From the NCBI RefSeq assembly GCF_001677475.2, contig NZ_CP015229.1: a stretch of 64,000 nt of DNA; one strand, 5' to 3'. The notes beneath the pieces were generated by a model, which saw nothing but the letters and a program-made list of their open reading frames with translations, was not told the origin of the DNA and ran no database searches. Each line of letters starts with the position of its first letter. Within the stretch, counting starts at the first letter, position 1. Origin of the DNA: Escherichia coli (GTDB lineage: Bacteria > Pseudomonadota > Gammaproteobacteria > Enterobacterales > Enterobacteriaceae). Shown here in pieces: positions 3,945-62,132 of this stretch. Position numbers and translations under genes: made by a program.

Positions 3945-6092
3945 TTACGCCAGTGCCGCTTCGCGCAGGCGAGTTTTCAACTTGTTGTACTCGTCAATCA
4001 CGTACTGCTCGGCGGCGCGCTGATCGGCGATCGGCTCGACGCGCACGGCGCAGTATTTGTATTCCGGCGTTTTCGTAATCGGGCTTAAGTTTTCGGTAAC
4101 CAGCTCGTTACAGGCACCAATCCACCACTGGTAGGTCATATAAATCGCCCCTTTGTTCGGACGATCGCTGACCTGCGCACGGGTGATAATTTTGCCTTTA
4201 CGCGAGTGCACCCAAACCAATGCCTCATCTTCAATACCCAGACGTTTGGCGTCTTCGGTATTGATTTGTGCGTAGCCAGGTTCATCAGCCAGCGCCGCCA
4301 GTGCCGCACAGTTACCGGTCATCGAACGGCAAGAGTAGTGACCAACTTCACGCACCGTTGACAGTACCATCGGATACTCGTCGGTGAGTTTGTCGATTGG
4401 CGCTACCCAGTCGCAGGTGAAGAACTGCGCCAGACCGTTCGGGGTATCAAACTTCTCTTTAAACAGATAAGAAGTCCCCTGATCGGCATCTGAAGTATCG
4501 CGGCAAGGCCACTGAATGAAGCCCAGTTCGCCCATTTTCTCGTAAGTCGCACCGTAGAAATCCGGGCACAGATGACGCAACTCATCCCAGATCTCCTGGG
4601 TGTTGTTGTAGTGCATCGGATAACCCATACGGGTGGCGATTTCACTGATGATTTGCCAGTCCGTTTTCAGATCCCATTTCGGTTCAACCGCTTTGAAGAA
4701 ACGCTGGAAGCCACGGTCAGCCGCAGTAAACACGCCTTCATGCTCGCCCCACGACGTTGACGGTAAAATAACATCCGCCGCCGACGCGGTTTTGGTCATA
4801 AAGATGTCCTGAACGATGACCAGTTCCAGATCTTCAAAGGCTTTACGTACTGCCGACAGCTCCGCGTCAGTTTGAAGCGGATCTTCGCCCATAATGTACG
4901 CGGCACGCACTTCACCATGCGCTGCGCGGTGCGGCAGCTCGCTGATGCGATAACCGGTATGAGCAGGCAGGCTTTCCACGCCCCAGGCTTTGGCGAATTT
5001 CTCGCGGTTAGCCGGATCTTTCACGTACTGGTATCCCGGATACGTATCCGGCAGCGCGCCCATATCGCAGGCACCCTGCACGTTGTTCTGACCACGAACC
5101 GGGTTTACACCCGCATGCGGCTTACCGAGGTTACCGGTCAGCATCGCGAGGCTGGTCAGAGAACGCACGGTTTCCACGCCCTGGTAGAACTGGGTTACAC
5201 CCATGCCCCACAGGATGGCGGCGCTTTTCGCCTGGGCATACATCCGTGCCGCCTGACGAATCTCACTGGCGCTGACGCCGGTGATATCTTCAACCGACTC
5301 CGGCGTGTAGCCTTCAACGATTTTACGATACTCTTCAAAGCCTTCTGTACGGGAAGCGACGAAAGCTTTGTCGTACAGGTTTTCTTCAATAATGACATGA
5401 CCCATCGCATTCAACAGCGCGATGTTCGAGCCGTTTTTCAGTGCAATGTGCATGTCAGCAATGCGCGCGGTTTCAATTTTGCGCGGATCGCAGACGATAA
5501 TTTTCGCCCCGTTACGTTTAGCGTTAATTACGTGGTTCGCCACGATTGGGTGGGAATCCGCCGGGTTGTACCCGAAAACGAACACTAAATCGGTATTATC
5601 AATTTCGTTAATAGCATTGCTCATTGCGCCATTACCGACCGATTGGTGCAGACCTGCAACCGATGGGCCGTGTCAGACACGAGCGCAGCAGTCAACGTTA
5701 TTGGTACCAATAACGGCGCGCGCAAATTTTTGCATTACATAGTTGGTTTCGTTACCCGTACCACGCGAGGAGCCGGTCGTCTGGATGGCATCCGGACCGT
5801 ACTTCTCTTTGATGGCGCTCAGGCGCTCGGCAACGTAATTCAGTGCCTCATCCCAGGAAACAGGTTCGAGTTTGCCGCCACGCTGGCGACGGATCATGGG
5901 GGTTTTCAGGCGCGGGGTCAGGATCTGGGTATCGTTAATGAAGTCCCAGCCATAATAACCCTTCAGACACAGGGTACCCTGGTTGGTTTTCCCCTGCGCT
6001 GCCTCCGCCCGGACGATTTTGCCGTTATCGACGACCAGGTTGATTTTGCAACCTGATGCGCAATAGGGGCAAACCGTGACGACTTTTTTCAT
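3945..6092 (-). CDS. fdhF: Formate dehydrogenase H, selenocysteine-containing molybdoenzyme (715 aa); in-frame UGA at 5673-5675 decoded as Sec
   Basis: ORF-track pieces 5673..6092 and 3945..5624 are in the same frame, separated only by TGA; read-through gives ...CCARV-U-HGPSVAGLHQSVGNGAMSNAINEIDNTDLVFVFGYNPADSHP..., the known FdhF sequence around Sec140. Confidence 0.95.
5630..5675 (-). other. Selenocysteine recoding site: UGA plus downstream SECIS hairpin in fdhF mRNA
   Basis: mRNA reads UGA-CACGGCCCAUCGGUUGCAGGUCUGCACCAAUCGGUCGGUAAUGGCG immediately 3' of the UGA, the classic fdhF SelB-binding stem-loop. Confidence 0.85.
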
Positions 6093-25742: not shown

Positions 25743-25807
25743 GATGGTGACCTCAGTTAAGAGAAGCCAGTTAAGTGTAGTTCGAAATTTATACAGATGA
25801 GAGGGAA

Positions 25808-25883
25808 GCCTGATAAGACGCGGTCAGCGTCGCATCAGGCTGTCGGCATCGTTGCCGGATGCGGCGCGAGCGCCTTATCCGGC
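25808..25883. repeat. BIME: two inverted REP units between yjdN and yjdM
   Basis: gcctgataagacgcggtcagcgtcgcatcaggc and gccggatgcggcgcgagcgccttatccggc. Confidence 0.8.
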
Positions 25884-25901
25884 TTACCGATCACAATACA
25901 A

Positions 25902-31547: not shown

Positions 31548-31559
31548 AACAATTGAACT

Positions 31560-31576
31560 CTTAAGGTTCACTTAAT
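31560..31576 (+). promoter_or_regulatory. PmrA (BasR) box upstream of pmrR
   Basis: CTTAAG-gttca-CTTAAT, an exact YTTAAK-N5-YTTAAK direct repeat 45-60 bp upstream of the pmrR ATG. Confidence 0.65.
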
Positions 31577-31620
31577 CTCTGACGCGCATACTCTCCTCCA
31601 GGTTAACGGAGGAGAGTGCA

Positions 31621-31710
31621 ATGAAAAACCGTGTTTATGAAAGTTTAACTACCGTGTTCAGCGTGCTGGTGGTCAGCAGCTTTCTTTATATCTGGTTTGC
31701 CACGTTCTGA
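31621..31710 (+). CDS. pmrR: Small membrane protein PmrR (29 aa); below the ORF-track cutoff
   Basis: atg aaa aac cgt ... ttc tga translates to MKNRVYESLTTVFSVLVVSSFLYIWFATF, a single TM helix; GGAGG Shine-Dalgarno; 3' end overlaps the convergent basS by 25 bp. Confidence 0.75.
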   Translation: MKNRVYESLTTVFSVLVVSSFLYIWFATF

Positions 31711-32786
31711 TCTTTCTTCAGCCGTACCCAGGCCCGCGTGCCGGAAGTCTCTTGCCGGTTCTGCAGGAAAAACTGCCCGTGATGCAACTGTGTAATGCGG
31801 CTGACAATACTTAACCCCAGACCAATCCCGCCATAACGGCTGTCCATACGTACAAACGCTTTACTCAACTCCCCGCATTTACTCTCATCAATACCCGGTC
31901 CTTCATCTTCAACGGCCATTACCGCTCCGCCATCTTCTTGCAGCTTAATCATAATGTTGCTGCCTTGCGGGCTGTAACGATGGGCGTTTTCTACCAGGTT
32001 TCGCAATAACATCCGCAGCAGGGTTGCGTCACCCTGAACGGTGATGTCGGCGGCGCTCTCTGGCAATAGCAGGGTTTGCTGGCGCTGGTCGAGCATGGTA
32101 CTGAGTTCGTCATACGAGGGGAGAATGACCTCTTCCAGCAGTTTTACATGTTGATAATTACCGGAAGAAAATGACTGTCCGGCGCGCGCCAGTTGTAACA
32201 GCTGGGAGACGCTCTCCATCATCTGATCAAGCCGTGCCACTAACGGTGCTACATCAATGTGATGCGTTTTCGCCAGCAGTTCCAGATGCAAACGCACCCC
32301 CGCCAGTGGCGTTCGCAGTTCGTGCGCGACGTCAGCGGTAAACAACCTTTCGTTATCCAGCGTGTTGGTCAGGCGACTGACCAGATCGTTTAACGCCGAA
32401 ACCACCGCTTCGATTTCGAGGGTGGCGCTGTGAATGGCAATGGGCGTTAAGTTGTCGGCGGTGCGCGCTTCCAGCTCTTTTTGCAGCTCCGCCAGCGGGC
32501 GGGTGATGCGATGCACCGCCTGATAGCAGATAAATAGCGTCAGGCTGACCATAAAGACGCCGGGGACAATCAGGCTGGCGACCGCCTCGCGGATCTCGCG
32601 CATAATGTGGCGATCGTTGTTGCGATTGTCGCGTAGCGCCTGCTCAAACAGCTGAATCTGCTCGGTACTTTCATGCCATAGCCAGAAGACGCTGATCAAC
32701 TCAAACACCAACAAAATGGCCCCGATGGTCAATATCAGCCGTTGGCGCAGCGATATTGGTCGGCGCAGAAAACGCATCAAATTCAA
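31686..32786 (-). CDS. basS: Two-component sensor histidine kinase BasS (PmrB)
   Basis: 366-aa ORF with two TM segments, HAMP, H-box (ADVAHELRTPL) and ATPase domain; exact start codon uncertain. Confidence 0.88.
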   Translation of the reverse strand: MNLMRFLRRPISLRQRLILTIGAILLVFELISVFWLWHESTEQIQLFEQALRDNRNNDRHIMREIREAVASLIVPGVFMVSLTLFICYQAVHRITRPLAELQKELEARTADNLTPIAIHSATLEIEAVVSALNDLVSRLTNTLDNERLFTADVAHELRTPLAGVRLHLELLAKTHHIDVAPLVARLDQMMESVSQLLQLARAGQSFSSGNYQHVKLLEEVILPSYDELSTMLDQRQQTLLLPESAADITVQGDATLLRMLLRNLVENAHRYSPQGSNIMIKLQEDGGAVMAVEDEGPGIDESKCGELSKAFVRMDSRYGGIGLGLSIVSRITQLHHGQFFLQNRQETSGTRAWVRLKKDQNVANQI

Positions 32787-51862: not shown

Positions 51863-52088
51863 TGGGAGAGTACAGATTCACGATATTTTTCATGCTCTCC
51901 GCGGTGTGATGCAGGAGAGCATCTGAAGGGTAGGGGGATGCACAAAGAATGGGCAGAGAGCGCGTTTTTTTGTCCCAAGTCATCCCCTTTACTGAGCAAA
52001 AAAAAGAATATCTCCTATATGAGAATCATCAATCGGGGTTAATAAGTTTTGCGTCCCCAGAGCGTTTAAAATTGATAGGAGTCATATT

Positions 52089-52385
52089 ATGGAAGGTAAA
52101 AACAAGTTCAATACTTATGTTGTTTCTTTTGATTATCCATCATCTTATTCCTCAGTGTTCTTAAGGTTAAGATCATTGATGTATGATATGAATTTCTCCT
52201 CTATCGTGGCTGATGAATATGGGATACCACGACAATTGAATGAAAATTCCTTCGCAATAACGACATCGTTAGCCGCAAGTGAAATCGAAGATTTAATCAG
52301 GCTTAAATGCTTAGACTTACCGGATATTGATTTTGACCTCAACATTATGACAGTTGATGACTATTTCCGTCAGTTTTACAAGTAG
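52089..52385 (+). CDS. ghoS: Type V antitoxin GhoS (sequence-specific endoribonuclease)
   Basis: 98-aa ORF MEGKNKFNTYVVSFDYPSSYSSVFLRLRSL..., directly upstream of ghoT. Confidence 0.85.
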   Translation: MEGKNKFNTYVVSFDYPSSYSSVFLRLRSLMYDMNFSSIVADEYGIPRQLNENSFAITTSLAASEIEDLIRLKCLDLPDIDFDLNIMTVDDYFRQFYK

Positions 52386-52412
52386 CCAGGAAGGATAAGA
52401 AGAACATAAAAA

Positions 52413-52586
52413 ATGGCACTATTCTCTAAAATATTAATTTTTTATGTGATTGGTGTGAACATATCCTTTGTCATTATCTGGTTTATCTCACATGAGAAAA
52501 CACATATTCGTTTACTTAGTGCATTCCTGGTCGGAATAACCTGGCCAATGAGTCTGCCTGTGGCATTACTTTTTTCTCTCTTTTAG
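52413..52586 (+). CDS. ghoT: Type V toxin GhoT (57-aa membrane-lytic peptide); absent from the ORF track
   Basis: Hand translation of atg gca cta ttc ... ttt tag gives MALFSKILIFYVIGVNISFVIIWFISHEKTHIRLLSAFLVGITWPMSLPVALLFSLF (two TM helices), 27 bp downstream of ghoS. Confidence 0.85.
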   Translation: MALFSKILIFYVIGVNISFVIIWFISHEKTHIRLLSAFLVGITWPMSLPVALLFSLF

Positions 52587-52704
52587 GAGCTGTAGTTGAG
52601 TGGACCCGCTGGTTATCTTGAAACGAAGCGTCTCTCCTCAAAACTGGATTTGCGGAACGACGAACGAAGCAGTCGCCTGACTGCTTCGTTCATTAAAGTG
52701 AAAT

Positions 52705-54222
52705 TTATTTCTGTGGGCGCATCGCCGGGAAGAGAATAACGTCGCGAATAGTATGACTGTTTGTAAACAGCATAATCATTCGGTCGATACCAATACCCAG
52801 ACCAGCGGTTGGCGGCAGACCATATTCCAGCGCAGTCACGTAATCTTCGTCATAGAACATGGCTTCGTCGTCACCTGCAGCTTTAGCGTTAACCTGTTCC
52901 TGGAAACGTTCAGCCTGATCTTCTGCATCGTTTAATTCGCTAAAACCATTACCGATTTCACGACCACCGATGAAGAATTCAAAACGGTCGGTGATTTCCG
53001 GGTTAACATCATTACGGCGCGCCAGCGGGGACACTTCTGCCGGATATTCCGTAATAAAGGTTGGCTGAATCAGATGTGCTTCTGCCACTTCATCAAAGAT
53101 CTCCGTAACAATACGTCCCAGACCCCAGCTTTTCTCTACCGTAATTCCGATAGATTCAGCTAATGCTTTAGCGGCATCAAAATTATCCAGGTCGGCCATA
53201 TCGGTTTCTGGACGATATTTTTTGATTGCTTCGCGCATGGTGAGTTTTTCAAACGGTTTGCCGAAATCAAACACATGCTCGCCATAAGTGACTTTAGTGG
53301 TACCCAGAACCTCTTGTGCCAGGGTGCGGAACAGTGACTCTGTCAGTTCAATCAAATCGTGGTAATCCGCATACGCCATGTAGAGTTCCATCATTGTGAA
53401 CTCAGGATTATGGCGAACAGAAATGCCTTCATTACGGAAGTTACGGTTGATTTCGAATACCCGTTCAAAACCGCCTACAACCAGACGTTTCAGATACAGC
53501 TCCGGCGCAATACGCAGGTACATATCTAAATCCAGAGCGTTATGATGGGTAATAAACGGGCGAGCAGATGCCCCACCTGGAATTACCTGCATCATCGGGG
53601 TTTCTACTTCCATAAAGCCGCGCGCGACCATGAACTGGCGGATAGCGGCCAGAATTTTTGAACGGACAACAAACGTTTGACGGGATTTATCGTTAGCGAT
53701 GAGGTCCAGATAACGTTGACGATAACGGACTTCCTGATCCTGCAGACCATGGAATTTATCTGGTAAAGGACGTAGTGCTTTTGTCAGCAGGCGCAACTCA
53801 GTACAGTGAATGGAAAGCTCACCCGTTTGCGTCTTAAACAGCGTACCGCGGGCACCGATAATGTCACCCAGATCCCATTTTTTAAACTGATCGTTATAAA
53901 CACCTTCTGGCAGGCTATCTCGTGCGACGTACAGTTGAATACGGCCACCGACATCCTGCAACGTTACAAAGGAGGCTTTCCCCATGATACGACGGGTCAT
54001 CATTCGGCCAGCAACCGAGACTTCAATGTTTAAGGATTCCAGTTCCTGGTTATCCTTCGCATCAAACTCTTCGTGCAACTGGTCAGAGGTATGGTCGCGG
54101 CGAAAATCATTGGGAAACGCCACACCTTGCTGACGTAGTGCCGCCAGCTTTTCGCGGCGATTTCTCAGTTCATCGTTAAAATCAATAGCCTCATTGGCTC
54201 CCCGTGTTTCTCGTTCAGACAT
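52705..54222 (-). CDS. lysU: Lysyl-tRNA synthetase, inducible isozyme
   Basis: ATG at 54222 gives MSE(R/Q)[30 protein letters not shown]... (505 aa); class II aaRS motifs. Confidence 0.92.
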
Positions 54223-54458
54223 TTTGGTTCCTCTAAATCCAGCTTTCAATTTAGCGTAGATAAAGAGACAGATCGGTACACTGTATTATCTGCCTCGACT
54301 ATTAATAACTCAGTTTATCTTATCGAAACTAACGCTTACCTCAAGTTGATATCACTAATAAATAACCATCAAAATGGTTTAAATGACTTATTAATCTCGA
54401 TTTATTAGTGTGATAAACTAAAAGTTAGTTTATTCATAACCAATTGTTTTTACGACAG

Positions 54459-62056: not shown

Positions 62057-62132
62057 TGGTGCCCGGACTCGGAATCGAACCAAGGACACGGGGATTTTCA
62101 ATCCCCTGCTCTACCGACTGAGCTATCCGGGC
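62057..62132 (-). tRNA. pheU: tRNA-Phe (anticodon GAA)
   Basis: Reverse complement GCCCGGATAGCTCAGTCGGTAGAGCAGGGGATTGAAAATCCCCGTGTCCTTGGTTCGATTCCGAGTCCGGGCACCA: 76 nt, anticodon loop ATTGAAAAT, TPsiC GGTTCGATTCC, encoded CCA. Confidence 0.97.

Follow-up and report, generated by a model that had tools for sequence, protein, structure and literature searches.

The locus at 52089-52586 raises the question whether a hydrophobic open reading frame of only 57 codons, lying behind a gene for the antitoxin GhoS, is a true ghoT, so that the two would make up a toxin-antitoxin pair in which the antitoxin acts on the messenger of the toxin. The ghoST pair is the founding type V toxin-antitoxin system, and Wang et al. 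2012 (Nat Chem Biol 8:855, as cited in PMC3997798 and PMC4010927) reportedly dealt with the GhoS/GhoT (YjdK/YjdO) proteins of E. coli K-12. The window, i.e. the whole stretch of 64,000 nucleotides that we analysed, is by its gene order and its substitutions E. coli chromosome from a strain other than K-12. We regard it as almost certain that we are dealing with the chromosomal ghoST operon of this non-K-12 strain, a type V system that would act by the mechanism described below. Both proteins are identical to the reference and stand in the reference position, and the system found here is already known.

Table 1. Positions of the features discussed, in coordinates of the window.
Feature	Position	Strand	Remarks
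ghoS (yjdK)	52089..52385	+	98 aa, ATG start; ORF list with minimum of 30 aa
ghoT (yjdO)	52413..52586	+	57 aa, ATG start; ORF list with minimum of 30 aa
Shine-Dalgarno sequence of ghoS, AGGAG	52077..52081	+	7 nt 5' of ATG; near-consensus, good spacing
ghoS-ghoT spacer, CCAGGAAGGATAAGAAGAACATAAAAA	52386..52412	+	27 nt
Purine-rich AGGAAGGA in spacer	52388-52395	+	17 nt 5' of ghoT ATG
Weaker AAGAAG in spacer	52397-52402	+	10 nt 5' of ghoT ATG
A/U-richest 20-mer of the transcript, AAAAUAUUAAUUUUUUAUGU	52428..52447	+	95% A+U, ghoT codons 6-12; sliding-window count
Perfect 13-bp hairpin, GAACGAAGCAGTC-GCCT-GACTGCTTCGTTC	52662..52691		between convergent ghoT and lysU
SECIS_2	5626-5680	-	Rfam gathering threshold, 87 bits
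naRNA4/CssrE	25807-25884	-	Rfam, 85.5 bits
sRNA STnc630	31552-31717	+	Rfam, 178.5 bits
tRNA (one)	62060-62132	-	Rfam, 68 bits

Both reading frames, the smaller one 27 bp downstream of the larger, are contained in the list of open reading frames of at least 30 aa exactly as the original prediction had placed them (Table 1). They are adjacent and co-directional, with the antitoxin first, and they occupy the yjdJ / lysU locus, an arrangement that is a feature of ghoST. A chance open frame in AT-rich intergenic DNA, which would be no gene at all, could likewise measure only 57 aa, below the usual cutoffs, lie in a stretch of 35% GC and have a weak or distant Shine-Dalgarno sequence. The probability of such a chance frame is practically nil in view of a full-length match to the Pfam family PF10753 (Toxin_GhoT_OrtT; E=9.8e-26; residues 4-57 against positions 1-55 of a model of 55), of identical amino acids across divergent E. 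coli strains, in which the changes in the DNA are synonymous only, of the RefSeq annotation in all sampled full-length matches, and of the experiments published on the identical K-12 protein (PMC4344625). The original prediction was to be given up if the small frame had no homology to GhoT or was disrupted in closely related genomes; homology is established by the Pfam match, and in the divergent strains that were sampled the frame is unbroken and encodes the same amino acids. A 66-aa antisense frame (52145-52345, minus strand), which lies wholly within ghoS, was dropped as unsupported.

The product of the small gene (MALFSKILIFYVIGVNISFVIIWFISHEKTHIRLLSAFLVGITWPMSLPVALLFSLF) bears out the two-helix hydrophobic character ascribed to it beforehand: its GRAVY value (Kyte-Doolittle) is 1.50, and two hydrophobic blocks, at about residues 4-26 (mean up to 2.57) and 34-57 (up to 1.72), are parted by the polar loop S26-HEKTHIR-33. 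These blocks are those of a Kyte-Doolittle hydropathy scan with a 15-residue mean, and both are predicted to span the membrane. GhoT, like OrtT, has been predicted to possess two transmembrane domains, the published ranges 6-26 and 34-54 being those of OrtT, and the substitution F38R abolishes GhoT toxicity (PMC4344625). F38 is present in our protein, in the context S36-A37-F38-L39. The accession of the protein, WP_001173343.1, is the same as in K-12, and given this identity the toxicity known from K-12 GhoT, with membrane damage and loss of ATP, may be expected here as well.

Membership in PF10753 does not by itself single out ghoT, because the family includes both GhoT and OrtT. OrtT (YdcX) is likewise a membrane-damaging peptide with two predicted transmembrane domains, but it lacks an antitoxin partner, escapes neutralisation by GhoS and carries two GCU sites in its mRNA (PMC4344625). 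The small frame could therefore be an orphan GhoT/OrtT paralogue of the OrtT type, free of control by ghoS in the way that OrtT is insensitive to GhoS (PMC4344625). We consider the chance of this vanishingly small: the DNA of the frame is identical to that of K-12 ghoT, it follows ghoS by 27 nt at the locus known from K-12, and it has no GCU site, against two in ortT (PMC4344625). The frame is thus ghoT proper, beside ghoS.

The antitoxin gene is equally well defined. Its product matches the Pfam family PF11080 (Endoribonuclease GhoS; E=7e-41; residues 7-94 against positions 6-93 of a model of 94) and is identical at 98 of 98 residues to chain A of the PDB entry 2LLZ, E. coli YjdK (E=7.8e-62); the RefSeq protein under homologous ghoS DNA is WP_000398619.1. 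R28, the most important catalytic residue of GhoS (PMC4010927), is present in the context F24-L25-R26-L27-R28-S29, as are the flanking L25 and M31. GhoS has a Cas2-like ferredoxin fold and is reported to be a structural homologue of the CRISPR-Cas protein Cas2 with conserved catalytic residues (PMC4010927, PMC3997798), a likeness that we take from the literature, our own comparison being one of sequence identity to 2LLZ alone. Unlike Cas2, GhoS is an antitoxin on its own, and neither a CRISPR array nor cas genes lie in its vicinity. With Pfam matches for both genes, the identity to 2LLZ, the RefSeq annotation and the synteny with K-12, the identification of the two genes as a ghoS-ghoT type V pair holds. 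A decayed pair is excluded, both frames matching the K-12 proteins and the ghoT frame being intact in relatives.

Neither GhoS nor GhoT found a match in the NCBIfam HMM library (E<=0.01) or among the models of the PADLOC defence library. Since Pfam has both families, these null results reflect the content of the libraries and not a defect of the genes. The RefSeq names of the two proteins must consequently rest on other evidence, and a pipeline that used NCBIfam and PADLOC alone would leave ghoS and ghoT unnamed. The claim that the toxin gene is missed by automated calls stands in one part only: 57 aa do lie below the 60-aa default of the ORF list, but the NCBI pipeline annotates GhoT under 24 of 24 sampled full-length matches to the region and under 39 of 39 to ghoT. 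In practice ghoT is not a missed gene, and this side-claim was overstated. The names given in RefSeq, 'type V toxin-antitoxin system endoribonuclease antitoxin GhoS' and 'type V toxin-antitoxin system toxin GhoT', occur in 24/24 sampled matches.

In a K-12 derivative the gene order is dcuB-dcuR-dcuS-yjdI-yjdJ-ghoS-ghoT-lysS(lysU)-dtpC-cadA, and it matches the large open reading frames of the window. With K-12 the locus shares both proteins, the flanking genes, R28, F38 and the distribution of GCU sites; the ghoT DNA is 100% identical to that of K-12 derivatives, and the 27-nt spacer is identical too. It differs by three substitutions in ghoS, all synonymous, and by seven in flanking non-coding DNA. 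Nine of these ten fall within 858 aligned bases (four upstream of ghoS, three in ghoS, none in the spacer or ghoT, two downstream) and the tenth lies just 5' of that alignment, so that the 276 nt upstream of ghoS hold five. The yjdJ-ghoS intergenic region (51863-52088, 226 nt) differs from K-12 at four positions; through one of these substitutions, at 52070, a -10-like TAATAT has become TAAAAT.

These non-coding changes allow a reading in which the pair is intact while its expression, the balance of toxin and antitoxin or its inducibility differ from K-12 in a strain-specific manner, and the five upstream substitutions, including that at 52070, together with the two 3' of ghoT, speak for it. 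We hold it to be very improbable, as no canonical promoter is found there in either allele, the spacer and the ribosome-binding sites of both genes agree with K-12, and such polymorphism is ordinary in E. coli, where identity to the region is 95-99% in 2638 genomes. On the evidence of the sequence, neither the synonymous substitutions in ghoS nor those in the flanks would imply a functional difference from K-12, and the locus is best read as an ordinary ghoST operon.

The ghoST region is close to universal in the species. A megablast search with 51900-52750 found it in 5341 of 5426 complete E. coli genomes, with the identity just mentioned for this query in 2638 of them; ghoT alone, at a coverage of at least 80%, was found in 5272 of the 5426, at an identity of at least 99% in 4319. 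Strains Z226-7, E2348/69 and H105 carry three of the most divergent full-length ghoT alleles among the matches listed (98.3-98.9% identity), and their GhoT has the accession WP_001173343.1, as in K-12. The gene was translated and aligned in five strains, and about 40 genomes were checked by annotation; the five-strain alignment has four variable sites, all of them synonymous (AGT/AGC, TTC/TTT, CTG/TTG, TTG/TTA). The ghoT frame is thus undisrupted in the sampled relatives, and the synonymous sites and the unchanged protein accession indicate purifying selection. Strain E41 (NZ_CP069707.1, L002, 6001-6800) belongs to the few percent of E. coli genomes that lack ghoST: yjdJ is immediately followed there by an IS1A element, and the place of ghoST, lysU and the genes beyond is taken by unrelated genes, for a formylglycine-generating enzyme, an ABC transporter and a vWA protein. 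Among 5.8 billion proteins, a word-indexed search picked up no more than 47 GhoS clusters, every named one from E. coli or Shigella, in agreement with the narrow distribution of GhoS given in the literature (PMC3997798).

The signals for expression are unequal in the two genes. The ribosome-binding site of ghoT is distant or weak and that of ghoS is strong (Table 1), a difference that would fit a toxin translated poorly relative to its antitoxin. The RNA fold around the ghoT start (z=0.40) reveals no significant structure hiding the ribosome-binding site. In a scan with promoter and terminator consensus sequences, no sigma-70-like promoter on the plus strand was found directly 5' of ghoS; the scan gave four promoter-like sites, against 3.1 expected, and two or three antisense ones within ghoS and ghoT were dropped as being at chance level. 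The same scan found no canonical intrinsic terminator 3' of ghoT. The perfect hairpin between ghoT and lysU was missed by it because no T-run follows; the segment that contains this hairpin (52587-52710) folds at -40.9 kcal/mol (z=-3.27), and we suggest the hairpin as a candidate bidirectional terminator for the two convergent genes.

The GC content of ghoST is 35%, against 51.6% in the whole window and 42-50% in adjacent genes, and this AT-richness would be compatible with an old horizontal acquisition. One may go further and see in ghoST an islet of AT-rich DNA (35% vs 52% GC) that was acquired horizontally and is expressed otherwise than in K-12 by virtue of upstream substitutions such as that at 52070, in which case changes of this type could shift the balance of toxin and antitoxin. 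Nothing in the evidence points specifically to an islet with altered expression, and we give it a slim chance at best. Nine 'plasmid' records with ghoST in a plasmid collection (H66-H75), from 94 kb to 4.9 Mb in size and all predicted to be non-mobilizable, are probably chromosome fragments or mislabelled chromosomes, and a phage collection contained no ghoST copy; since the records look chromosomal and the phage collection is without a copy, there is no evidence of ghoST mobility. A 119-kb plasmid of Salmonella enterica carries a toxin gene of the GhoT/OrtT family, with about 70% identity over 155 nt.

How the pair would work follows from what is known of its K-12 counterpart, the enzymatic and toxic activities being deduced from amino-acid identity to the experimentally tested proteins. 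The antitoxin of a type V system targets the mRNA of the toxin, not the toxin protein (PMC3997798, PMC8610362), and GhoS is a stable, sequence-specific endoribonuclease that cleaves ghoT mRNA in A/U-rich regions (PMC3997798). GhoT is a small membrane protein yielding ghost or persister cells (PMC3997798, PMC3905216, PMC4010927, PMC4344625). In our strain, GhoS would thus neutralise the toxin by cutting A/U-rich regions of ghoT mRNA and not by binding GhoT, an activity that the 100% identity to the tested K-12 protein makes likely. If made, GhoT, an inner-membrane peptide of 57 residues that is predicted to form two hydrophobic helices, would damage the membrane, lower ATP and lead to 'ghost' or dormant cells. 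The search for A/U-rich sites in ghoT mRNA that had been proposed at the outset yields, in a sliding-window count, the 95% A+U 20-mer of Table 1; the second richest stretch lies in the spacer and ribosome-binding region. We take the 20-mer as a candidate region for GhoS cleavage because cleavage is reported in A/U-rich regions (PMC3997798); a literature search with the original ghoST papers outside its reach found no explicit GhoS cleavage motif. As our ghoT and spacer do not differ from those of K-12, the cleavage sites published for K-12 must be preserved here.

The release of the toxin under stress is assigned to another toxin, MqsR, which cuts at GCU and degrades ghoS mRNA preferentially, so that GhoT synthesis is freed (PMC4344625, PMC3905216); others report that the ghoS transcript also contains a site cleaved by RNase III (PMC6212723). 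Applied to the window, the type II toxin MqsR, a GCU-specific RNase, would destroy the ghoS part of the transcript first, and the ghoT part, being without a GCU site, would be spared, with the consequence that toxin synthesis is released. The distribution of sites is as published (PMC4344625, PMC3905216), with three GCU sites in ghoS, at gene positions 121, 213 and 221, and none in ghoT. Under synonymous recoding the probability that ghoT has no GCU is 0.065 if codons are drawn uniformly and 0.032 if they follow local usage, and it is 0.74 when the gene's own codons are permuted and its AT-rich usage is kept. Taken alone, the lack of GCU in ghoT is a weak statistical signal, and we keep it as agreement with the literature.

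Related copies exist outside this locus. In some Escherichia genomes and metagenome contigs a ghoS-like and a ghoT-like gene lie between potE and rarD; this locus has the same two-gene architecture and Pfam families, but its ghoS-like protein is 58% identical and has K for R28, and it occupies another chromosomal locus, which is absent from the window. Strain 3908 (NZ_CM128561.1, L006, 2625-3078) has such a second ghoS-like gene between speF-potE and rarD, 58% identical to GhoS and with K replacing R28 and E replacing R26. Behind it stands a GhoT/OrtT pseudogene truncated at its 5' end; an antitoxin-like gene has been kept and the toxin has decayed. Three metagenome contigs from ENA (L007, 1011-1457; L008; L009), with the protein P0042, possess a locus of the potE/rarD type in which the stop codon of the ghoS-like gene has become TAT. 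P0042 is one open reading frame across the ghoS-like and the ghoT-like part, with both Pfam domains and in a cluster of 91 member sequences, and its ghoS-like N-terminus is without an ATG start; it may be either a functional fusion or a decaying copy with the toxin still translated from its own ATG. Another protein, P0003 (169 aa, from a 5.0-Mb ENA contig), consists of near-identical E. coli GhoS and GhoT called as one fused protein. Its sequence alters near the ghoS stop (…RQFLQVAGKDKKNIK-MALFS…), and a frameshift or a mistake in the sequencing seems to lie behind the fusion.

Some further observations concern other genes of the window. The lysyl-tRNA synthetase gene convergent with ghoT (52705-54249, minus strand) appears in the mechanical list as a frame of 514 aa starting from TTG. 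We take this gene, which stands beside dtpC/cadA, to be the lysU paralogue of K-12 nomenclature. The homologous CDS in RefSeq, labelled lysS, has 1518 nt (505 aa), from which it follows that the true start is the ATG nine codons downstream of the TTG. The SECIS_2 hit of Table 1, a selenocysteine insertion element, lies at the 5' side of a 559-aa frame, presumably fdhF.

The ghoST operon of this strain has little discovery value: the system has been the subject of experiments since 2012, the structure of its antitoxin is solved, both proteins have Pfam families, and in RefSeq E. coli genomes they are named nearly universally. What it illustrates for toxins of this kind is that a cutoff of 60 aa for open reading frames hides small toxins like ghoT, which argues for a lower cutoff, or for profile searches, beside known antitoxin genes.
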